Source of the DNA: an uncultured delta proteobacterium
GTDB lineage: Bacteria; Desulfobacterota; Binatia; UBA9968
Direction: 5' to 3'
Assembly: GCA_963755715.1 (NCBI GenBank)
Contig: CAVWLW010000066.1
Coordinates: 1-11,284 of the forward strand
DNA: 11,284 nucleotides
The translations under genes and the position numbers were made by a program. Positions 1,205-11,284 of this stretch are shown here, one piece after another. The notes below the pieces were generated by a model. It did not search any database, was not told the DNA's origin, and saw nothing but the letters and a program-made list of their open reading frames with translations. Each line of letters begins with the position of its first letter. The stretch's first letter is position 1.

Positions 1205-3043
1205 CTAGGCGATAGCCGCTGCGGCCGACGAAGCAAGCGGGTCTCCACCGTTCCCGCCAAACTCTTTGACGATCGCGTCGATCTCGGATCCGTCCAAAAC
1301 TTCCTTCTCGAGTAGCGATTCAGCAACTTTATGGAGGAGCCGTAGATTGGTTTTCAACAGGTCCTTGGCTTTATGATAGCTATCTTGAATGATCCGTCTG
1401 ACCTCGGCATCGATCTCGATCGCAGTGCTCTCGGAGTAATCCACTTTCTGGGTAAAATCTCTCCCTAAAAAGATCTCTTCCTCTTTTTTCCCGAATGTCA
1501 TCGGACCGAGTTTTTCGCTCATGCCCCACTCGCATACCATACGGCGCGCCAACTCCGTCGCCTTTTCAATGTCGTTGCCGGCGCCGGTCGTCATGTGGTT
1601 GAGCACGAGCTCTTCCGCGACTCGGCCGCCGAAGAGAATCACTAGGTTATTGAGCAAATAATCGCGCGGATAAGTGTGTTTTTCATCCATCGGCAGCTGC
1701 TGGGTCAAACCGAGAGCCATGCCGCGCGGAATAATCGTCACTTTGTGAATCGGATCCGCCCCCGGTAAAAGCTTCGCCACCAGTGCGTGTCCCGCTTCGT
1801 GATAGGCCGTGTTGCGCTTCTCTTCGTCGCTGATGATCATGCTACGCCGCTCAGCTCCCATCATGACTTTATCTTTGGCCAGCTCAAAGTCGCGCATATC
1901 GACTTTTTCTTTGTTGTTGCGCGCCGCCAGGAGCGCCGCTTCGTTCACCAGATTTTCCAGATCGGCGCCGGCAAAGCCTGGGGTCGAGCGGGCAAGCACG
2001 CTGATATCCACATCCGTTCCGACCGGTACTTTGCGCGTGTGCACTTGCAAGATTCCTTCGCGACCCTTGATATCGGGTCGTGGCACGACAACGCGCCGAT
2101 CAAACCGTCCCGGGCGGAGCAGGGCCGGATCCAACACATCGGGACGATTGGTCGCGGCGATGAGAATGACTCCTTCGTTCGCTTCGAAGCCGTCCATTTC
2201 GACCAGCAGCTGGTTCAGCGTCTGCTCGCGTTCGTCATGGCCGCCGCCGAGACCAGCGCCGCGATGGCGCCCAACGGCGTCGATTTCGTCAATGAAGATA
2301 ATGCAGGGTGCATTCTTCTTGCCCTGAACAAATAGATCGCGCACTCGCGAAGCGCCGACGCCAACGAACATTTCGACGAAGTCCGATCCGCTGATGCTGA
2401 AGAACGGCACGCCTGCTTCGCCGGCGATGGCGCGGGCCAACAAAGTTTTCCCTGTCCCCGGAGGGCCAACCAAAAGGCAGCCCTTGGGAATCCGGCCGCC
2501 CAGCTTGGTGAACTTCTTGGGATCCTTTAAAAAGGCAATGATTTCCTGCAGGTCGTCTTTCGCTTCATCCACCCCGGCAACGTCGCTAAACGTCACCCGA
2601 TGCTGGTTTTCGGTGAGCAGTTTCGCCCGGCTCTTGCCGAAGGACATCGCCTTGCCACCGCCCACCTGCATCTGGCGCATGAAAAATATCCACACGCCGA
2701 TCAGCAAGAGCATGGGAAACCAGTTAAGCAAAAGCACCATGTACCAAGGCGAATCTTCCTCGGGCTTAGCAGCGATCTTAACTTTTTTCTCACGCAGTGA
2801 TTTCACCAATTCGGGGTCGTTCGGTGCGAAAGTGCGAAAGCGTTCGCCGTTTTTGTATTCTCCTTGAATATTATGGCCTTGAATCGTGACCTTCTGCACG
2901 TCGCCGCGATCGACCGACGTCATGAACTCGCTGAAAACGATTTCCGGTTCGCGCCCGTGCTGTTTATTAAAGACACTAAAGATCGCGAGGAAAATCAGTG
3001 CCAGAACTAGCCATAAGGCGATATGTTTCGATGACTGACTCAA
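1205..3043 (-). CDS. ftsH: ATP-dependent zinc metalloprotease FtsH
   Basis: Two N-terminal TM helices, Walker A GPPGTGKT, Walker [32 protein letters not shown] and HEAGH zinc motif. Start moved from 3055 to TTG at 3043 ([13 protein letters not shown]) because GGAGG lies 5 nt upstream. Confidence 0.98.
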
Positions 3044-3072
3044 ACGCTCCTCCAAAGTCTAAGAACGAAAAA

Positions 3073-3101
3073 AGTGTAACACACGCGACTACTTCGATCA
3101 A
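3073..3101 (-). promoter_or_regulatory. Sigma70-type promoter for ftsH
   Basis: On the minus strand, -35 TTGATC (3101-3096), a 17-nt spacer ending in TGTGT (extended -10 TG), and -10 TACACT (3078-3073), in the AT-rich tilS-ftsH gap. Confidence 0.65.
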
Positions 3102-3118
3102 TAATATCTTATGGAAAG

Positions 3119-4537
3119 CTAAGTCTCGATAGGGACCGCCTTCACGCAAATACAGGCAGCCGTTTTTTCCGATACTCGAGCTATTTCGCTTCTGCCAAAG
3201 CCGGGGATCCAGAGAATTTCTTCGCCCATGGTCAAAAGCGGGCATCGGGCCCGGATTGAAAGGGGAACTTTCTTTTCAATGAAGAGATCTTTAATTTTCT
3301 TGTGGCCGGCCATGCCGAGAGGCTGAAATCGGTCGCCGCGGCGAAAATTGCGCACCGCCAAATGCCCAGTCAGGCAAGAAGCGTCAAATGCCGCTTCCAT
3401 GAGACCACCTTCGAGCTGGAGCTGTGTTTTCGCGGCCAATTCGCTTTGAAATTCTATAGACGCTTCATCAATGCGCAACCTGGTGCCGACTTCTAAGCGG
3501 TAACTATAACAGACCGGTTTTAATCCTCGGGACCGGCGCTCCAATCTGAGCTTTTCATATTTGCGGACCAATTCCCATCCGCCGGGAATCGACAAGCGCC
3601 CCTGCGCCGGTCCCTCTTCAATTAGACGCAGCAGCGCCTCGATGTGAACGAAATCGATACCACGCAAATGGCCGCGCGTTTGCTCCAGCCAAAAGCGGAG
3701 CACTCGCCTTTGCAGCGCCTTCGGCTCTCCGAGCAGCGCCGTCCGGCTAAGACCGGTCCCATCGTGAATCCGGTCATGGCGTTTTCGCGCCACCTCTTCT
3801 AAAAATAAATCCTCGTCGCGAAACACCTGCGCCTGCTGGCCGAGCCGGCTGGACAAGCCATCGTCAACACGCTCGTGAATCTTTGGCATCAGTTCCAACC
3901 GAATCCAGTTACGAAGAAACGCCGAGTCCTGATTGCTCCGGTCGATTCTGTAGGCGAGCCCCTTTTCTGCCAGATACGCGAGGATCTCTGATTTCGAAGT
4001 TTCAAGCAGCGGGCGAATGACGGTCAGTGTATCCGGTGAGCCATTGGCCAGACGAAGTTGTTGCAGCGGCGACATGCCACCCGATCCCTTCTTGCCCGCG
4101 CCGCGCAAAAACCACATCATCACCGTCTCCGCCTGATCATCCCGGGTATGCGCGGTAGCAACCTTGCCCAAACGGCGATCTTTGACCATCTCGGCAAAGA
4201 AACGATAGCGCTCCACCCGAGCCAGCGCTTCAAGATTGCCCTTGCCCGCGTCCGACTTCATCCGTGGCAGATCGACCTCTTTTAGGTGGAATGGCAGACT
4301 GAGCTTCTCCGCCATTGCCGCCACAAATTCAGCATCTTCCTTCGCTTCTTCGCCGCGAATCCCATGCTGCAAATGCGCGACTTCGAGGGATAACTTAAAT
4401 TCTTCCCGAAGCTCGCACAGCAGGTGCAACAGCGCCACCGAATCCGGCCCGCCGGAGACGGCAACGAGAACGCCATCGCCGGGTGACAGCAAGCTGTATC
4501 GGATCGCCAGGTTTCTTAGATCCCGTCCAATTGCCAT
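3119..4537 (-). CDS. tilS: tRNA(Ile)-lysidine synthetase
   Basis: PP-loop AVSGGPDS, ARVERY, TAHTRDDQAET, IRPLL, DRSN...RNWIR, and C-terminal GDRFQPLGMAGHKKIKDLFIE. Lies directly upstream of ftsH. Confidence 0.97.
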   Translation of the reverse strand: MAIGRDLRNLAIRYSLLSPGDGVLVAVSGGPDSVALLHLLCELREEFKLSLEVAHLQHGIRGEEAKEDAEFVAAMAEKLSLPFHLKEVDLPRMKSDAGKGNLEALARVERYRFFAEMVKDRRLGKVATAHTRDDQAETVMMWFLRGAGKKGSGGMSPLQQLRLANGSPDTLTVIRPLLETSKSEILAYLAEKGLAYRIDRSNQDSAFLRNWIRLELMPKIHERVDDGLSSRLGQQAQVFRDEDLFLEEVARKRHDRIHDGTGLSRTALLGEPKALQRRVLRFWLEQTRGHLRGIDFVHIEALLRLIEEGPAQGRLSIPGGWELVRKYEKLRLERRSRGLKPVCYSYRLEVGTRLRIDEASIEFQSELAAKTQLQLEGGLMEAAFDASCLTGHLAVRNFRRGDRFQPLGMAGHKKIKDLFIEKKVPLSIRARCPLLTMGEEILWIPGFGRSEIARVSEKTAACICVKAVPIET

Positions 4538-4539
4538 CG

Positions 4540-5611
4540 CTAGATGTTTAGTTTCCCCGCGTACCCGGTCATTTCAACGTAACCATTTCCGGTCACGGAT
4601 TTTTTCCTAAACTCTCCTGTGATTCCAACCGCCCCCTCCCAATAGGTCACTCTCGTGCTGCGATTAGTGATCAACTCTTGCTCTGGAAAGGCGGGACTGA
4701 TTTCCAGCTCGATGTTCTCCGAGGGAATCATCACTTTCCATTTCATCGGATAGTTCGCGCCGCTGCTGGGGCTTTTCCAGCGATCCATTACTTCAACACG
4801 GTAGTCCTTGAGATCAAGGTGTTTGGATGTACCGTCTGCATTCACCAAGGTACCACTGGAGTACGGATCGACCGAACCATCCTTTCGGCGCATCAGGTAG
4901 AGCATCAATTCGGTATTGTTGTCGAGCTGAATGCTAAACCAGTCCCAGCCGACCTGATCCTCGCCCAGTTGATTGCTGCCGAACTCGTGGTCCATCCAGC
5001 TCACACCGCGGACCGTTTCCTTCTTGCCGTCAATGATTAATTCGCCGTCGGTTTGTATGCGCGTCAATGAATAATAATAGGACGCTCGTCCCTCGCCCTC
5101 TGCTTTTCTGCTCAAGCCATTCTCCCCGTGCAGCACGGCAGGTTTGAATGACTTGAGCGACAATCGGAGCTGCGTTCCGCGGTCATTGACTTGAACGTGG
5201 TGAACCTTCTCATCCCCTTCGACTTTCCAATTTTCGTTCCAAACTAAATACCGGTCTGTCGCGGCGCCGGCCTTGTTATTGTAACCGCGATTGATTCGTT
5301 CGCGGAACGTGAACTTCTTCGCAGCTATGTCCGAAAGCGCAAAATGCGCCATGTACAACTCAGTGAACAGCGGCGACTCTTTTGTTTCCTTCTGCCGGTC
5401 GCGCACCCCGAAACGAAAAAAAGTAACTTGGTAGCCGTACTTTTTGCCGCTCTCGGTTTGCCAAATGACCCGTGTAGTACCACCATTCGGTTTTGAAGTC
5501 GGGATGGGAATAGTGAGCGGCGGGAAATGTCAATTTTCGTCCGGGCAGGGCAAGCTGGTAAGTGAAGCCGACAACGAATAAATAAATACCCATCAATACC
5601 GCGGCGACCAT
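4540..5611 (-). CDS. AttH/CrtC-like (carotenoid 1,2-hydratase family, lipocalin-like) secreted protein with one +1 frameshift near 5461
   Basis: Family motifs FPAAHYSHPDFKTEWWYYTGHL, then after skipping one base QTESGKKYGYQVTFFRFG, MAHFALSD, ASYYYSLTR, SWMDHEF, GWDWFSIQL, YWEG and GYVEMTGY. Hydrophobic N-terminus MVAAVLMGIYLFVVGF. Start uncertain (5611, 5593 or 5659). Confidence 0.85.
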
Positions 5612-5683
5612 TGCAGGGCCGGCGAATTCACGGTTCGCTTTGTTAATTTGCAGTGCCATTTCGACTAGTGTTATAGGGAGCCT

Positions 5684-6521
5684 ATGGATAAACAATATAC
5701 GCGCGAAACCTTGCTCACAACAGCAAGTGAATTGCAGCGAAAACTCGGCGCTGAAAATCTTTGCATTATTGACGTGCGACCGGCGGAAGATTACGCCAAC
5801 GGGCATATTCCCGGCGCGACGCACTTCGACTTGTTTGGCCTCAGCTTGATCGACACCAGCGACGCGCCGCTCAAGGCCTTCATGTTCATGATCCATCACG
5901 TGCTCGAACTGCGCGGCGTCAACGAATCGAAGGAAGTCGTGTTTTACGAAGACAATTCCGGCATGCGCGCAGCGCGGGGATTATGGTTTCTCGAATATTA
6001 TCGGCCATCCGAATGTCAAAGATGCTCGACGGCGGGTTTCCAGCCTGGAAAGCCGCCGGTGCGCCGGTTACGTCGGATGCGACGCCGCCCAAAGCTGCGT
6101 CATTTAAAATCGCGGAGCGCCGAGACGTTTTAGCGACGCACCGATGACGTGCTTCGCTCGCTCGATCAGAAGCAGATCGCCATCCTCGACACGCGCAGCG
6201 AAGGTGAATATCTGGGCACGCATGTGCGCGCGGCGCGCGGCGGCGCGATTCCCGGCGCGATTCATATCGAGTGGACCGACAACATCGCTCGCCGACGGCA
6301 AATTCAAATCCAACGACGAACTTAAAGCGATGTACGATAAAGCCGGCATCACGCCGGACAAAGAAGTCGTGTCTTACTGCCAGGGCGGCTATCGCGCGGC
6401 GCATAGCTATGTCGCCTTGCGCTTGCTCGGCTTTCCGAAAGTTCGCAACTACATCGGCTCGTGGAAAGAGTGGGGCGACCGCGCCGATCTGCCGATCGAA
6501 ATTCCCAAGCCGGCGAAATGA
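5684..6521 (+). CDS. Tandem-domain rhodanese/sulfurtransferase with four +1 frameshifts (likely sequence errors, possibly a pseudogene)
   Basis: N-domain IIDVRP..Y..GHIPGA and VVFYED...AAR. Reconstructed across shifts at ~6001, ~6020, ~6139 and ~6289: EYYGHPNVKMLDGG.AWKAAG.PV...[28 protein letters not shown]...YCQGGYRAA...[10 protein letters not shown] (rhodanese C-terminal signature). RBS GGGAG at 5676-5680. Confidence 0.9.
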
Positions 6522-7489
6522 TCTTACGCGAGCGCATTTATTTCTTTTCGCTGTTAGTCGCGCTGTCCGCCTTGGCGAATCCACGACTGGCAGCGGCAGC
6601 TGATTTAAGAAAAGTCACGTTCTCCTATTCGGCGGTGAGTATGACTTGGTATCCGGTGAAGGTTGCGCTCGAAAAAGGCTTCTTCCGCAGCGAAGGAGTG
6701 GAACCCCAGCTGATTCAGATGAATGGCAACGTCGCCACGGTGGCTCTGGCCAACGGTTACATCGATTTTTCATTGAATATTTCCCCCGTGCTCAACGGCG
6801 CGATGCAGGGCTTGGGGACAAAACTCGTCGCAGCGCTAAATTCCCGTCCGCTGTTCGCCCTTGTGGTGCGGCCGGAGATCAATGCGCCGAACGATCTCAA
6901 GGGAAAAGTGTTCGCGGTGAGCTCTTTCGGCAACACCCAAGCGATCCTGACGGAAAAGCACTTACAGCACTTGGGGCTGAAGAAAGGTGAATACCAGCTG
7001 CTGGCGATGGGCGCGACGCCGGCACGGATCGCCGCTTTGGAGAAAAACATCGCACAGGGAAGCTTGATGCCACTGCCGACCAATGTTCAGCTCGAAAACA
7101 AAGGCTATCGCCTGCTCGGCAACACAGCCGAAATCGTCATCAATCCGATCGCCGGTCTCGGCGTCCACGAAGACAAGATCAAGAAAGATCCCGACCTGAT
7201 CAAACGCGTGCTTCGCGCGTCGCTGCGAAGCCTGCAACTTTTGCAAGCGAATGCCAAAGACACGGTTAAAACTCTCATGGCTTGGACTCGCGCCACAGAA
7301 AAGGACGCGCTCCGTTCGCTGGAGTTGGCCAAGCCCGGTTTCAGCAGGAACGGCATGCTGACCGACGACGATCTCAGTATCGAATGGAATTTCATTCAGC
7401 AGCAGACCAAGAAAACCAGCGTACCGGTGTCGATCGCGCACGACATGACACTGCTAAGAGACGTGCAGACCGAGATGGGGCTTCGCTGA
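6518..7489 (+). CDS. SsuA/THI5/NMT1-family ABC substrate-binding protein with signal peptide
   Basis: ATG at 6518 overlaps the rhodanese TGA (ATGA). Signal peptide [28 protein letters not shown]. Family motifs [36 protein letters not shown] and RIAAL. Confidence 0.85.
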
Positions 7490-7516
7490 TTCGAGGTGTG
7501 ATTAGGCGACTAAGAC

Positions 7517-7566
7517 TAGACGCAACGAGTTCTGTAGTTAAATTAATCTAACGGGAATAGAAGGAG
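7517..7566 (+). promoter_or_regulatory. Putative promoter (TAGACG-N16-TAAATT) and RBS AAGGAG for the 7574 gene
   Basis: AT-rich 84-bp gap with -35-like TAGACG at 7517-7522, -10-like TAAATT at 7539-7544, and AAGGAG at 7561-7566, 7 nt before the ATG. Confidence 0.45.
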
Positions 7567-7573
7567 ACAAATC

Positions 7574-8521
7574 ATGCGCACACTAGATCTTTTGGCCAGC
7601 GACTCATCGCACCTGCCCTTTCTCTATGTCTTCAAGGAATCCAAGGTGATGGAAAAGTACGGCTATGAAATCGATCTGCATATTGTCGGCGGCGCCAAGG
7701 CGCCGACCATGGCGCACCGCGCCAAGCTCGCGCTCGCCGGCGAAATCGATTTTCTCAGCGGCCTGCATCACGAAACCTATCGCGAGCGCGCCAAAGGCGA
7801 AAAGCGCCTGACCTATCTCGCGCAAGCGCAGAACAATTGGGACGACCGGCTGGTCGCGTTGCCGGAAATCAAGAATGTGGAAGATCTGAAAGGCCGCAAG
7901 ATCGTCTGCCACTCTAAGGCGCCCTGCGTGTCCGGCAATCTGCGCGCGGTGTTGGAAACCTGCGGGCTCAAGCCCGAGGAGATCAACATGGATGTGATCA
8001 ACGACACGTCGGGTAAATTTTTGGATTTCGTCGATGAAATCACTTCGGGTAAAGCGGTGGCGGCGCTGGTTGACATGCCGTTTGACCTCTACGGCATCAA
8101 AAAGGGGTTGCATGTCGTCGATCTGCCGGATCGCCCGGTGATTCATAACACAACCTTGCTCGCGACCAGCGATTACATCAAAGCCAACGAGGAAACGGTC
8201 AACGCATTCATCAAGGGATTCATCGAAGCGCTGCACTTCTTCAAAACCCAACCGGCTAAAGTTGTGCCGATTCTGAAAAACAATCTCGCCAAGCGCTATG
8301 GCTTGCAAGACGACGAGTACTACATTCATCTGCAGCGCGAATGGGCCAAGCTGCTCAACAAAAAGCCCTATCCGCTACCGGCTGCAATTCAGAACGTCTA
8401 TGACCTCGACGTCGGCAAAGACCCCAAGATGCATCACATCGGTCCGATGGAACCGTGGGATTTACACTATCTCAGGAAAATCGACGACAGCGGCTTTATC
8501 GATCAACTCTACGCCCAATAG
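7574..8521 (+). CDS. SsuA/THI5/NMT1-like periplasmic-binding-fold protein lacking a signal peptide (predicted cytoplasmic)
   Basis: Family motifs MEKYGYEIDL, LAGEIDF, IKNVEDLKGRKI, GLKPEEI, FIKGFIEALHF and LRKIDDSGFIDQLY. Strong RBS. In-frame TAA at 7544-7546 excludes an upstream leader. Confidence 0.8.
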   Translation: MRTLDLLASDSSHLPFLYVFKESKVMEKYGYEIDLHIVGGAKAPTMAHRAKLALAGEIDFLSGLHHETYRERAKGEKRLTYLAQAQNNWDDRLVALPEIKNVEDLKGRKIVCHSKAPCVSGNLRAVLETCGLKPEEINMDVINDTSGKFLDFVDEITSGKAVAALVDMPFDLYGIKKGLHVVDLPDRPVIHNTTLLATSDYIKANEETVNAFIKGFIEALHFFKTQPAKVVPILKNNLAKRYGLQDDEYYIHLQREWAKLLNKKPYPLPAAIQNVYDLDVGKDPKMHHIGPMEPWDLHYLRKIDDSGFIDQLYAQ

Positions 8522-8526
8522 GAATC

Positions 8527-9906
8527 ATGCCGAGTATCGATCTGCGCCACTTTCTCGGCGTGCTGAGCAGGCACGGCGAACTGCTCAGGGTGGCCGACGA
8601 AGTCGATTTGCGCTACGAGGTCTGTGAATTTCTGCGGCAAGCCGACCGCGCCTGCGGGCCGGCGCTTTCCTTCGAGCGCGTCAAAGGCCATTCGATGAAA
8701 GTCGTCGGCAATCTCGTCGGCACCAAAAGGCGCCTGGCGCTGGCCTTCGGCCTGCGCAGCGAAGACAAACTGCTGGAGATTTATCGGAAGCGACGCGGCG
8801 CTGGAGGCAAACCGCGGCGCGTTAAAGACGGACCGGTCAAAGAGGTCGTACTGCGAAACAGCAAGCAAGTCGATCTGAATGCTCTGCCGATCCCGATCTA
8901 CCACGAAGAAGACGCCGGCCCGTACATCACTTGCGGCATTCTCACCGCCAAAGATCCGGAAACCGGATTGAGAAGCATGGGTTTACATCGGCTCCAGGTG
9001 AAGGACAGTCGCCACTTGGGCATCCATTTGGCGAACCCGCCGATCTCGCGCTTCGTCGCCAAGGCCGAAGAAAACAATCGCCCGCTCGATGTCGCGATCA
9101 GCCTGGGAGTTCATCCGATTCTCTTGCTCGCCTCCATCGTCAGCTCACCGACTGAAGATAAAGTCGCCATCGCCGGCAATCTGCTCGGCAGCCCGCTGGC
9201 GTTGACCAAATGCGAGACTTCGGACGTCGACGTTCCGGCGCATGCCGAAGTCGTCATTGAAGGAAAAATTCTGCCGAAGGTACGAGAACCGGAGGGTCCG
9301 TTCGGCGAGACTTCGGGATACTATTTCAGCGATCAGAGCCATGTGATCGAAGTCACGGCGATCACGCACCGAAAGGATCCCATTCTGCAGGCGCTTCATC
9401 CCACATCACAGGAAGTCGCATTGCTCTGCGGCCCGGCGGGCGAAGCCGAGATCGCTCAAATGCTGCGCGAAAAGGGGTTCGCCGTGGCCGATCTGGCGCT
9501 CAGCGCGCCGAGCGGCCGAACTCACGTGGTCGTGTCGTTAAAGAAGCGCCACGACTCGGACCCGAAACAATTGTTGCATTTTTTGCTCGCCGGCGTGCCG
9601 TATATCAAGCACGCCGTCGTGGTCGACGACGATGTCAACGTCCAAGATCCGGGAGATGTCGAATGGGCGATCGCCACCCGCGTTCAAGGCGATGCGGATC
9701 TCGTTATCATTTCCAACCTGCGAGCCAGAAGCATCGATCCGTCCAAAAAAGATGGCATGTTCACCGCCAAGGTCGGCGTCGACGCGACCGTGCCGATAGC
9801 CGAACGACATAGATTCAAAAGAATCGGCGTTCCCACCGAGGTGACGCAGTCCGTGACGAAGCGCCTGGCCGCGATCATGCCCGTAACCACAGCGACGCGA
9901 AGCTAA
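8527..9906 (+). CDS. UbiD-family (prenylated-FMN) decarboxylase
   Basis: DLRHFL..L...GEL, GPAL.FE.VKG, VVGNL, DL..LPIP....EDAGPY, GLHR, AEVVIEG, EGPFGETSGYY, VVVDDDVNV.D..DVEWAIATR and KVGVDAT. ATG at 8527 is 5 nt after the upstream stop. The ORF-track start at 8455 overlaps the upstream gene. Confidence 0.93.
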   Translation: MPSIDLRHFLGVLSRHGELLRVADEVDLRYEVCEFLRQADRACGPALSFERVKGHSMKVVGNLVGTKRRLALAFGLRSEDKLLEIYRKRRGAGGKPRRVKDGPVKEVVLRNSKQVDLNALPIPIYHEEDAGPYITCGILTAKDPETGLRSMGLHRLQVKDSRHLGIHLANPPISRFVAKAEENNRPLDVAISLGVHPILLLASIVSSPTEDKVAIAGNLLGSPLALTKCETSDVDVPAHAEVVIEGKILPKVREPEGPFGETSGYYFSDQSHVIEVTAITHRKDPILQALHPTSQEVALLCGPAGEAEIAQMLREKGFAVADLALSAPSGRTHVVVSLKKRHDSDPKQLLHFLLAGVPYIKHAVVVDDDVNVQDPGDVEWAIATRVQGDADLVIISNLRARSIDPSKKDGMFTAKVGVDATVPIAERHRFKRIGVPTEVTQSVTKRLAAIMPVTTATRS

Positions 9907-9969
9907 GCCTGAGTTCTGCTGGCTGAAAAGTAAGTGTTTCTCACCAGGAACCGAAAACGAAAATCAATC

Positions 9970-10521
9970 ATGCCGAAGACGGCTATTTCATTTCTGATCG
10001 GCATCGCCTGTTGGCTGACCGCTGCGTCACCTTTTTTCGCTGCGGAACCTGAAGCTCAGCGAAAGATTGTCCTCACAAGCGCGGCGTTCCAACATGGCGC
10101 GGACATTTCGCGCAAATACACTTGCGACGCCGAAGATGTTTCGCCGCCGCTTCGTTGGACGAATGCGCCGGCGGCAACAAAATCATTTGCGTTGATCGCC
10201 GACGATCCCGACGCGCCGGGCGGAACATGGGTGCACTGGGTGATTTACGATTTGCCGGCGGATACGAAAGAACTCCCCGAGGCCGTCGCAAAAACGGAGG
10301 CTTTGCCCAGCGGCGCCAAACAAGGCGTGAATGATTTTCGCAAGCTCGGCTACAACGGCCCCTGCCCGCCTCCCGGGTCGGCGCATCGTTACTATTTCAG
10401 GCTCTATGCGCTCGACGCGCCGAGCGATCTCAAGGCACGGGCGACTAAACTGCAGGTGCTGGAAGCAATCAAGGGGCATGCGCTCGGCGCAGCCGAGCTC
10501 ATGGGACGCTACAAGCGATAG
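9970..10521 (+). CDS. YbhB/YbcL-family Raf kinase inhibitor-like (PEBP) protein, secreted
   Basis: YTCD..DVSPPLRW, DDPDAPGGTWVHWV and GYNGPCPPPGSAHRYYFRLYALD. Signal peptide MPKTAISFLIGIACWLTAASPFFAA from ATG at 9970. Confidence 0.93.
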   Translation: MPKTAISFLIGIACWLTAASPFFAAEPEAQRKIVLTSAAFQHGADISRKYTCDAEDVSPPLRWTNAPAATKSFALIADDPDAPGGTWVHWVIYDLPADTKELPEAVAKTEALPSGAKQGVNDFRKLGYNGPCPPPGSAHRYYFRLYALDAPSDLKARATKLQVLEAIKGHALGAAELMGRYKR

Positions 10522-10598
10522 CGCGGGACTGTGATCGCCGGTTTTAGCGTTCCCTGCCGGCGCGCGGTAGCTCAAAGCAGCGGGTCAAAGACAAAAAA

Positions 10599-11284
10599 CT
10601 ATCTCACTTCGATGATCAACGGCGCAGCGCGTGTCGGCTGCGGCTGCAGAATTTGCGGCGAGTTGTCGCTAAACACCATCGGCTCGCCGATCCGCCACAG
10701 ATACAACGGATGCTGGTCGCCAACCGAGTCACGATAGGTTTCCGCAACTTTCGGCTGCCAATCGCCCATATCGAAGACGTAGGAAACCACCCGCGCGCCC
10801 GGCTTGAGCTGCCGCAGCAGTTGCGGCCGGACCGCGAGATTGCCGTCATAGGATAGGTAGAGGGTCACCACCGATGCGGGCGACAAATTCGCGGTTAGAA
10901 AATCCTGTTCGCGGATCTCCACCAGTTTTTCCACGCCTTCCCGCCGCGCGTTCTCACGGGCCAATTTCACCAGACCGGGATCGATCTCGAAGCCGACGCC
11001 CCGAACTCCATATTTCTTCGCCGCAGCAATGAGAATGCGTCCGTCGCCCGAGCCGAGATCATAAACCACGTCGCCTTTTTTGACTCCGGCAAGAGTGAGC
11101 ATGCGCTGCACCACTTCCTGGGGCGCCGGATCGAACGGCGCCACTTGACCGGGTCCGCGGGTTCGCTCATCGCCGGGCGCATTATCGGCATAGCGGCGAT
11201 CGGGTTGGGGTGTTCCCGGAACATAGGGAACATACGGCGCATAGGGTGTAACGATTGTCGTGTCGAAGTAGCCGGGAACGTCGT
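10599..11284 (-). CDS. Class I SAM-dependent methyltransferase (FAM173/aKMT-like); 5' end lies outside the window
   Basis: P.PQEVVQRML.LA.V..GDVVYDLGSGDGRI.I.AAKKYG.RGVG.EIDP, ASVVTLYL and LKPGARVVSY.FDMGDW. The frame is open with no stop from 11144 to the window end (DVPGYFDTTIVTPYAPYVPYVPGTPQPDRRYADNAPGDERTRGPGQ). Confidence 0.88.
   Translation of the reverse strand, partial: DVPGYFDTTIVTPYAPYVPYVPGTPQPDRRYADNAPGDERTRGPGQVAPFDPAPQEVVQRMLTLAGVKKGDVVYDLGSGDGRILIAAAKKYGVRGVGFEIDPGLVKLARENARREGVEKLVEIREQDFLTANLSPASVVTLYLSYDGNLAVRPQLLRQLKPGARVVSYVFDMGDWQPKVAETYRDSVGDQHPLYLWRIGEPMVFSDNSPQILQPQPTRAAPLIIEVR
11220..11246 (-). repeat. Three imperfect 9-bp tandem units encoding PYA-PYV-PYV
   Basis: Plus strand aacataggg-aacatacgg-cgcataggg, in frame within the methyltransferase extension. 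Confidence 0.6.

Follow-up and report, generated by a model that had tools for sequence, protein, structure and literature searches.

A signal-less NMT1/SsuA/THI5-fold protein in Binatia-type bacteria: a constrained core gene with an accessory UbiD neighbor

Does a protein with the fold of the periplasmic binding proteins, made without an export signal, serve the UbiD-family decarboxylase that is encoded immediately behind it? The question is raised by an 11,284-nucleotide (nt) stretch of DNA from an uncultured delta proteobacterium (contig CAVWLW010000066.1 of assembly GCA_963755715.1, a Binatia-type assembly of 7.4 Mb in 76 contigs); this stretch, at its full length, is called the window here. 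On its plus strand, an open reading frame (ORF) of 315 residues at 7574–8521 encodes a signal-less protein of the NMT1/SsuA/THI5 type, a type II periplasmic-binding-protein fold. It is followed at 8527–9906 by a gene for a decarboxylase dependent on prenylated flavin mononucleotide (prFMN), of the UbiD family. A first reading, made from the sequence alone, had proposed that the two genes constitute a tight two-gene system, in which the 315-residue protein acts as an enzyme, or as a carrier of substrate, cofactor or metal, for UbiD. Comparison of orthologous loci and genomes leads to a different view of the pair. The 315-residue protein is cytoplasmic and belongs to a clade whose members consistently lack an export signal. 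Its gene is a core gene of the Binatia-type genus, under strong constraint; at this locus UbiD is an accessory, recent and often-lost downstream module.

The first line of evidence is the distribution of UbiD among orthologous loci. A scan of one genome per species yielded 44 loci with orthologs of 76–100% identity, which were screened by tblastn with the proteins of the window only; parts of two were also searched with Pfam. UbiD lies downstream in 6 of the 44 loci, or in 6 of the 42 that are informative, since L022 and L046 end too soon. Three of the six copies are intact (L010, L011, L048), one is cut by the end of its contig after the first 47 residues (L024), and two are decayed, with the coding sequence split over frames (L047, L026). 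In loci without UbiD, the next gene encodes a methyltransferase or a PEBP-family protein, and 12 of the 44 loci have a PEBP gene behind the NMT1-fold gene.

Genome-wide counts give a similar picture. Of 30 same-genus genomes, 26 yielded an ortholog of the NMT1-fold gene (E ≤ 1e-80), as did 29 of 36 genomes in the family (25 of 29 and 27 of 34 without G005 and G035, which are flagged as unpublished); 4 of the 30 yielded a UbiD ortholog (E ≤ 1e-100). In 22 of the 26 that have the NMT1-fold gene, no UbiD ortholog was found at that threshold. In all 5 genomes with UbiD, that of the window included, UbiD immediately follows the NMT1-fold gene; in G021 both genes are broken or partial. More distant relatives of this UbiD, of 67–68% identity, occur in another family (G043, G045), where they adjoin a Tpt1/KptA gene and where no ortholog of the NMT1-fold gene was found in the genome.

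The phylogeny of the NMT1-fold gene places these occurrences in a single sub-lineage. In a midpoint-rooted FastTree tree of the gene's DNA with 40 tips (L047 and three other loci, whose copies are incomplete or broken, were omitted), all UbiD-bearing tips fall in one clade of 8 with a Shimodaira–Hasegawa-like support of 0.977. The clade comprises five tips with UbiD, one with a decayed UbiD and two without. In locus L009, from the nearest relative, the 315-residue protein is 100% identical to that of the window and the DNA is 93.6% identical up to window position 8505, but window positions 8505–10598, which hold UbiD and the PEBP gene, are replaced by about 150 nt. For the NMT1-fold gene of L009 against that of the window, the proportion of synonymous differences (pS) is 0.157 and that of nonsynonymous differences (pN) is 0.004. 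The two loci were compared over window positions 1921–8505 and 10598–11284. Most simply, UbiD was inserted once, behind a gene that was already in place, and was later lost or decayed.

Selection on the two genes differs in the same sense. With pS near saturation, only the ranking of median pN/pS against the window copy is safe; in this ranking the 315-residue gene (0.088, n = 42 loci) is second lowest of eight, after ftsH (0.052) and ahead of the paralog that precedes it (0.140), UbiD (0.181, n = 4), a CrtC-like gene (0.196), the methyltransferase gene (0.255), the PEBP gene (0.287) and tilS (0.407). This member of the clade is thus subject to strong purifying selection and is nearly as tightly conserved as FtsH.

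Against these observations must be set the intimate arrangement of the two genes where both occur. The gap had been given as 5 nt, and it is: the stop codon TAG occupies 8519–8521, the UbiD ATG begins at 8527, and the ribosome-binding site overlaps the stop. Every UbiD-bearing locus shows a spacing of 4–5 nt. In four RNA libraries, each from a different study, there are contigs that match parts of each of the four plus-strand genes (88–100% identity), and one of 370 nt spans the junction between the NMT1-fold and UbiD genes (8344–8686), though such libraries may contain DNA and the contig cannot prove a single transcript. Elsewhere, a different pair of paralogs forms a conserved UbiD–NMT1 module, and UbiD loci of the host genome are enriched for NMT1-like neighbors, as described below. 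A dedicated two-gene system nonetheless seems very unlikely, given adjacency in 6 of 44 loci with two copies decayed, the pattern of a single gain with later losses, the relative that has an identical protein and lacks UbiD, and the weaker constraint on UbiD. Neither of the two marks of a conserved two-gene system, adjacency across orthologs and co-occurrence across genomes, is present. The sequence-only reading had itself made conserved linkage to ubiD one test of its proposal, and because the linkage is not conserved the proposal is not supported. The case for a new two-gene UbiD system should be given up, and annotation of the locus as a unit would mislead.

Two further analyses bear on the pair. 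Prediction of a complex between UbiD and the NMT1-fold protein scored 0.00 in two runs, which is evidence for neither side. The pair had also been credited with a promoter-like gap of its own; the gap is 84 nt long, and a crude scan for sigma-70 promoters found 0 sites in 5800–10700, against 1.8 expected, and so lends that claim no support. Terminator-like sites number 8 against 7.6 expected, which is the level of chance.

If the 315-residue protein is not dedicated to UbiD, what is it? That it remains in the cytoplasm is indicated first by its start. As had been described, the ORF runs from 7574 to 8521 on the plus strand, and the short stretch before it (7544–7573) holds an in-frame TAA at 7544–7546, 10 codons before the ATG, and a strong ribosome-binding site, AGGAG, at 7562–7566, 7 nt before the ATG. 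The first β strand begins at residue 2 of the AlphaFold2 (AF2) model. An upstream in-frame stop is present in 43 of 43 orthologous loci examined, in 41 of them within 45 codons, and no hydrophobic 10-mer occurs in the open frame before the start in any of the 43. Most of these loci have an AGGAG-like site a few bases ahead of the start, as judged by eye without a count.

The absence of a signal extends to the relatives, a point that the sequence-only reading had set as a check; close homologs do not usually carry signal peptides. Full-length relatives are mostly 315–316 residues long (best 120 of 618 database relatives), and all 32 aligned members of the clade begin at strand 1. An exhaustive search over representatives clustered at 50% identity returned 1044 hits at E ≤ 0.001, of which 259 reach E ≤ 1e-10 and 34 reach E ≤ 1e-30. 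Full-length hits in the better range (28–49% identity, 300–335 residues) align from their own first residues, and the weaker ones are shifted by about 30 residues, consistent with a signal peptide. A further 80 metagenome loci were fetched with an alignment of 10 paralog sequences, and so sample paralogs of the clade rather than orthologs of the protein in the window; an upstream hydrophobic segment is missing in 64 of the 65 that are informative. The signal-less NMT1/SsuA-fold clade is thus well populated, and it has no characterized member.

Orthologs of the protein are publicly named [quoted passage not shown] (ABC, ATP-binding cassette), and about 400 of the 445 NMT1-like ORFs of the genome do bear a signal. 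It is hardly credible, though, that the protein is an ordinary exported binding protein of this kind, with a mis-called start or a non-classical route of export. The in-frame stop 10 codons upstream, the 43 loci without an upstream hydrophobic segment and the strand that begins at residue 2 all argue otherwise; the score to the TIGR01728 SsuA_fam model is 25.2 bits, below the cut-off of 163.5, and the window has no NitT/TauT-type permease or ATPase gene. The public name is contradicted by the missing signal.

The fold is as had been proposed, a Venus flytrap of the SsuA/THI5 type, on which the Pfam match and the structural comparison agree. Pfam PF09084 (NMT1/THI5-like) matches residues 47–228 with 38.4 bits against a cut-off of 20.5, and also matches 28 of the 32 clade members. 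The AF2 model, built from a 101-row alignment, has a mean predicted local distance difference test (pLDDT) score of 95.5 and a predicted template modeling (pTM) score of 0.92. With Foldseek and VIA-align it matches SsuA, CmpA, NrtA, ThiY and THI5 with Z 20–22 over 270–296 residues, and the enzymes DszB, MqnD and 4,5-dihydroxyphthalate decarboxylase (9jp7) with Z 19.4, 17.1 and 14.7. Because binders and enzymes tie, with Z values within 1–2 of each other, the fold cannot separate catalysis from binding.

With the secreted binders SsuA, TauA, NrtA, CmpA and ThiY, the protein shares the two-lobed type II binding fold. It differs from them in that it lacks a signal peptide and a lipobox, has no permease or ATPase gene to go with it, and is only 10–15% identical in sequence. 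It also carries the C-terminal WDLHYLR...GFID segment, which is specific to the clade and marks it, and a G-x-H motif.

The histidine and cysteine residues singled out by the sequence-only reading, H13, H65, H66, C112, H113 and C118, are all at the positions it named, but the evidence on their conservation is mixed. Among 26 orthologs of 65–93% identity, four of them (H13, H65, H66 and C118) never vary, and at least 90% of the orthologs keep C112 and H113; with a mean column identity of 78% in these orthologs, this says little for special roles. Across the 32-member clade only G63, H65, G75 and G131 are invariant, so that H65 alone of the named residues survives, and C118 aligns with the histidine of a G-H-P motif in clade paralogs.

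Could the protein be one of the cytoplasmic enzymes that are already known to use this fold? THI5/NMT1, DszB, MqnA/MqnD and 4,5-dihydroxyphthalate decarboxylase are likewise signal-less, stand-alone cytoplasmic proteins, and in the 315-residue protein conserved histidine and cysteine residues lie at loop positions. In THI5, the hydroxymethylpyrimidine phosphate (HMP-P) synthase, an active-site lysine forms a Schiff base with pyridoxal phosphate and a histidine is sacrificed in the reaction. The Pfam family, the invariant histidines and fold matches of Z 21.3 to THI5 (4h67), 19.4 to DszB, 17.1 to MqnD and 14.7 to 9jp7 would suit an HMP-P synthase of the THI5 type or an enzyme like one of the other three. 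Sequence comparison points elsewhere and makes such an identity highly improbable. Identity to those chains is only 9–14%, and no membership in their families is detectable at the level of sequence. A single-sequence search of the Protein Data Bank gave no relative (a chance match at E 0.85), and profile comparison favors the binders SsuA (2.3e-22) and TauA (2.7e-22) over THI5 (7.8e-13, residues 17–157). The profile match to 9jp7 has an E-value of 0.003 over only about 50 residues. No description of the fold of the dihydroxyphthalate decarboxylase was found in the literature searched, which included passages of PMC13040137.

Two specific roles were considered and set aside. For thiamine synthesis, the genome has ThiC (630 bits) and thus needs no THI5 route, and the window has no thiamine pyrophosphate riboswitch or other Rfam match at E ≤ 1. 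For the futalosine pathway, the MqnA/D model PF02621 misses the 315-residue ORF and matches two other places weakly, with 30.8 and 23.8 bits.

A commoner partner than UbiD is a neighbor that the sequence-only reading had overlooked. Directly upstream, at 6518–7489 on the plus strand, lies a second NMT1/SsuA-like gene (Pfam NMT1 73.5 bits, NMT1_2 44.8 bits), whose translation from ATG 6518 has a hydrophobic, signal-peptide-like N-terminus. It is only 23% identical to the 315-residue protein, over 148 residues. This secreted paralog is the commonest conserved neighbor, present upstream in 33 of the 44 loci; 31 of the 33 are covered by a single high-scoring segment pair of at least 50% coverage, one is cut by the start of its contig and one is split over frames. 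The usual gene unit is thus a secreted NMT1-type binding protein followed by the 315-residue cytoplasmic protein. In three loci (L016, L017, L035) the last 28–36 codons of the paralog are left, together with 30 N-terminal codons in L035, and these deletion scars show that it has been lost repeatedly.

Homologs of about 50% identity extend the association with uptake. These occur in a sister family at seven loci (L069–L075; genomes G037, G039, G041, G012), are also signal-less, and keep motifs equivalent to H13 and H65/H66. Four of the seven adjoin genes for SBP_bac_5 and a Dpp/Opp-type permease and ATPase, three adjoin SBP_bac_5 and TctA, and six have a divergent major facilitator superfamily (MFS) gene beside them. 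The homolog is placed between the MFS gene and SBP_bac_5, with the ABC or TctA genes beyond the latter. The TctA loci carry an unassigned ORF before TctA, and a DAO-family oxidoreductase is near in three loci. The paralog C26 of the host genome, and paralogs of the C27b type, adjoin genes for secreted binding proteins of other families. The earlier statement that no permease or ATPase gene is nearby is correct for the window, in which a scan of its 11 ORFs with Pfam and curated family models found none for transport, but it does not extend to the sister family, where ABC permeases do adjoin homologs.

A cytoplasmic copy of a binding fold that accompanies a periplasmic binding protein has a precedent in the C-terminal, NrtA-like domain of NrtC and CmpC. 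This regulatory domain senses its ligand inside the cell and acts in cis. By analogy, the 315-residue protein might be a non-catalytic sensor of an imported solute that feeds back on transport. The NrtC/CmpC domains are indeed among the best fold matches (9u9z_C, Z 21.3; 8wm7_C, 21.0; 9uak, 20.9; about 21 in all), the profile E-value to NrtC is 4.5e-14, and the clade repeatedly adjoins genes for secreted binding proteins and transporters. The 315-residue protein is, however, free-standing rather than fused to an ABC ATPase, and no output domain is fused or adjacent to it. No transporter membrane or ATPase gene is found in the window or in the two orthologous loci scanned in part with Pfam, except an MFS_3 gene in L040. 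The stand-alone cytoplasmic fold matches (THI5, DszB, MqnD, 4,5-dihydroxyphthalate decarboxylase) bear entry titles that describe them as enzymes, and many signal-less paralogs in the host genome lie in catabolic clusters without transporters. A pure sensor is for these reasons unlikely, though it deserves more weight than the other alternatives discussed so far.

The explanation that we favor, and consider on balance probable, is that the protein is a cytoplasmic ligand binder of the signal-less clade, the product of a core gene, with a role that is independent of UbiD and linked to uptake. Either an enzyme or a cytoplasmic binder is plausible. Its two lobes would close on a small organic molecule that is probably an anionic carboxylate, in a cleft predicted to be lined by conserved loops (H13; H65/H66; W89-D90-D91-R92; C112-H113 and C118; D167-D171; H191-T194). 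The bound ligand may well be transformed there, with a probability not far short of even; with somewhat lower probability, it may be held or sensed without catalysis. We thus slightly favor an enzyme over a non-catalytic binder or sensor. In either case the role would be connected with the uptake of solutes and not with prFMN chemistry. The presumably co-transcribed UbiD in the lineage of the window probably forms an optional extension of the pathway, in which it decarboxylates the same (hetero)aromatic acid or one derived from it.

Several points weigh against this explanation. The partnership with the secreted paralog is not obligate either, since the paralog is absent in 8 of the 44 loci and is only a remnant in 3 more. 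The fold search ties binders with enzymes. The tight spacing of 4–5 nt between the NMT1-fold gene and UbiD is kept wherever UbiD is present. The genome counts for UbiD (4 of 30) and the NMT1-fold gene (26 of 30) come from 27 or 37 candidates scored per genome, and many genomes are incomplete, so that an absence there means "not found". NMT1-like genes are enriched about 3-fold at the UbiD loci of the host genome (odds ratio 3.8), with a Fisher p of about 1e-4 that is overstated because paralogs are not independent. Some functional link of the protein to UbiD chemistry may thus exist.

The enrichment must be seen against the background of the genome, which has about 445 NMT1-like ORFs, as detected with a profile built from its own paralogs, and 49 UbiD loci. 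It contains 113 matches to BPD_transp_1, counting ABC importers of all types, so that most of the NMT1-like binding proteins must be without a dedicated ABC permease. Another NMT1 gene lies within 300 nt of 125 of 425 NMT1 genes. An NMT1-like ORF lies within 300 nt of 15 of the 49 UbiD loci, against 392 of 3792 other long ORFs. Thirteen of the 15 neighbors bear a signal and two do not, namely the protein of the window and one on contig C30. Forty-six of the 445 ORFs have no hydrophobic N-terminal segment, and about 17, by eye, have a clear methionine just before strand 1; 2 of these 46 and 13 of the other 399 stand beside UbiD, numbers too small to compare. Other signal-less paralogs adjoin Amidohydro_2, cupin, Rieske and TenA/heme-oxygenase-2-like genes, as well as arylmalonate-decarboxylase-like, MmgE/PrpD, GntR/IclR/RpiR and secreted binding-protein genes.

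The C30 paralog provides the conserved association that the window lacks. It is signal-less and 34% identical to the 315-residue protein, and it stands between a UbiD paralog, before it, and a heme-oxygenase-2/TenA-like gene, after it (G000:C30:80099–84438; loci L004 and L054). Orthologs of the C30 type, of at least 72% identity, occur at 9 of the 80 metagenome loci. UbiD is directly upstream in 6 of the 7 that are informative (L151 is without it), and a heme-oxygenase-2-like match lies downstream in 5 of the 9. The module is seen at L146–L148, L152, L158 and L159. In L152 and L159 a second pair of UbiD and NMT1-like genes follows it, and L153, cut at its start, also shows the downstream pair. 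Other subtypes of paralog have fixed neighbors of their own: an OmpA-like gene; SBP_bac_1/11 with a CsgG-like gene; or an isochorismatase-like gene with DUF763.

Because the C30-type module is conserved, cooperation between NMT1-fold proteins and UbiD is not absurd at the level of the family. The pair in the window is not the conserved instance of such cooperation; a looser link at the family level may exist. Signal-less Binatia NMT1-fold proteins might constitute an uncharacterized family of enzymes or substrate handlers that was recruited to UbiD more than once, an idea that we regard as doubtful. Were it true, the window would represent a second, younger recruitment, with a gene order opposite to that of C30. 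A binding fold would then act together with prFMN enzymes, and might capture the acid substrate or carry out a step before or after (de)carboxylation; given the CmpA-like fold, the captured ligand might also be bicarbonate or CO2. In any case, the host lineage has undergone very large expansions of NMT1-like and UbiD genes, which are found close together at a higher rate than expected and point to unexplored handling of aromatic and heterocyclic acids in an uncultured soil phylum. Among the papers listed by targeted literature searches, none was relevant to UbiD with NMT1 or substrate-binding proteins, to UbiD of Binatia or to NMT1 and substrate-binding proteins of Binatota.

The expansion resembles that of the Bug/TctC proteins of Bordetella (PMC11452294), which are among the expanded families of orphan binding proteins. 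In both cases one binding-protein family is greatly expanded, and the NMT1 members are scattered beside catabolic genes. The Bug proteins belong to a different fold family (TctC, not NMT1), and some 17–46 of the 445 NMT1-like ORFs here are without a signal.

The UbiD gene itself is a clear member of its family. All three of its Pfam domains (PF20695, PF01977, PF20696) score above their cut-offs, and TIGR00148 scores 353.2 bits against 244.85. More specific models fail: VdcC scores 291.6 against 650, the MqnL-type mena_SCO4490 226.5 against 495.9, and the E. coli UbiD model PRK10922 186.8 against 788 bits. The closest solved relative is HmfF, the 2,5-furandicarboxylate decarboxylase (6h6v/6h6x; 330 bits over residues 5–436, against 179 for the E. 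coli UbiD structure), and the automatic name given by JGI to the orthologs is "2,5-furandicarboxylate decarboxylase 1". The UbiD of the window passes no curated equivalog model, in a library that contains none for HmfF. Unlike HmfF, it is not adjoined by an hmfG or ubiX gene; two matches to the flavoprotein family of the UbiX/CoaC type lie elsewhere in the genome.

The remaining genes of the window include, on the minus strand, folP (114–1043), ftsH (1205–3055), tilS (3119–4537) and a methyltransferase gene (10599–11282). Between tilS and the NMT1-like genes, a CrtC/Lipocalin_9-like gene appears on the minus strand as two ORFs (4540–5406 and 5360–5899), which overlap in different frames, with T and A homopolymer runs at the overlap. 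In L009 it is a single ORF of 452 residues (2620–3978), and in the window the split reflects either a fault of the assembly or a true frameshift. Next to it on the same strand, an ORF of 221 residues (5919–6584) has no Pfam or NCBIfam match and overlaps the 5′ end of the upstream NMT1-like ORF as annotated; it may not be a gene, since tblastn matched it in only 2 of the 44 orthologous loci, at 33–43% identity. Behind UbiD, the PEBP/YbhB–YbcL family protein (9970–10521, plus strand; Pfam PBP 155 bits) has a signal-peptide-like N-terminus. Its ORF opens with GTG at 9934, and the ATG at 9970 precedes the hydrophobic segment. The four products of the plus-strand run thus alternate as secreted, cytoplasmic, cytoplasmic and secreted.

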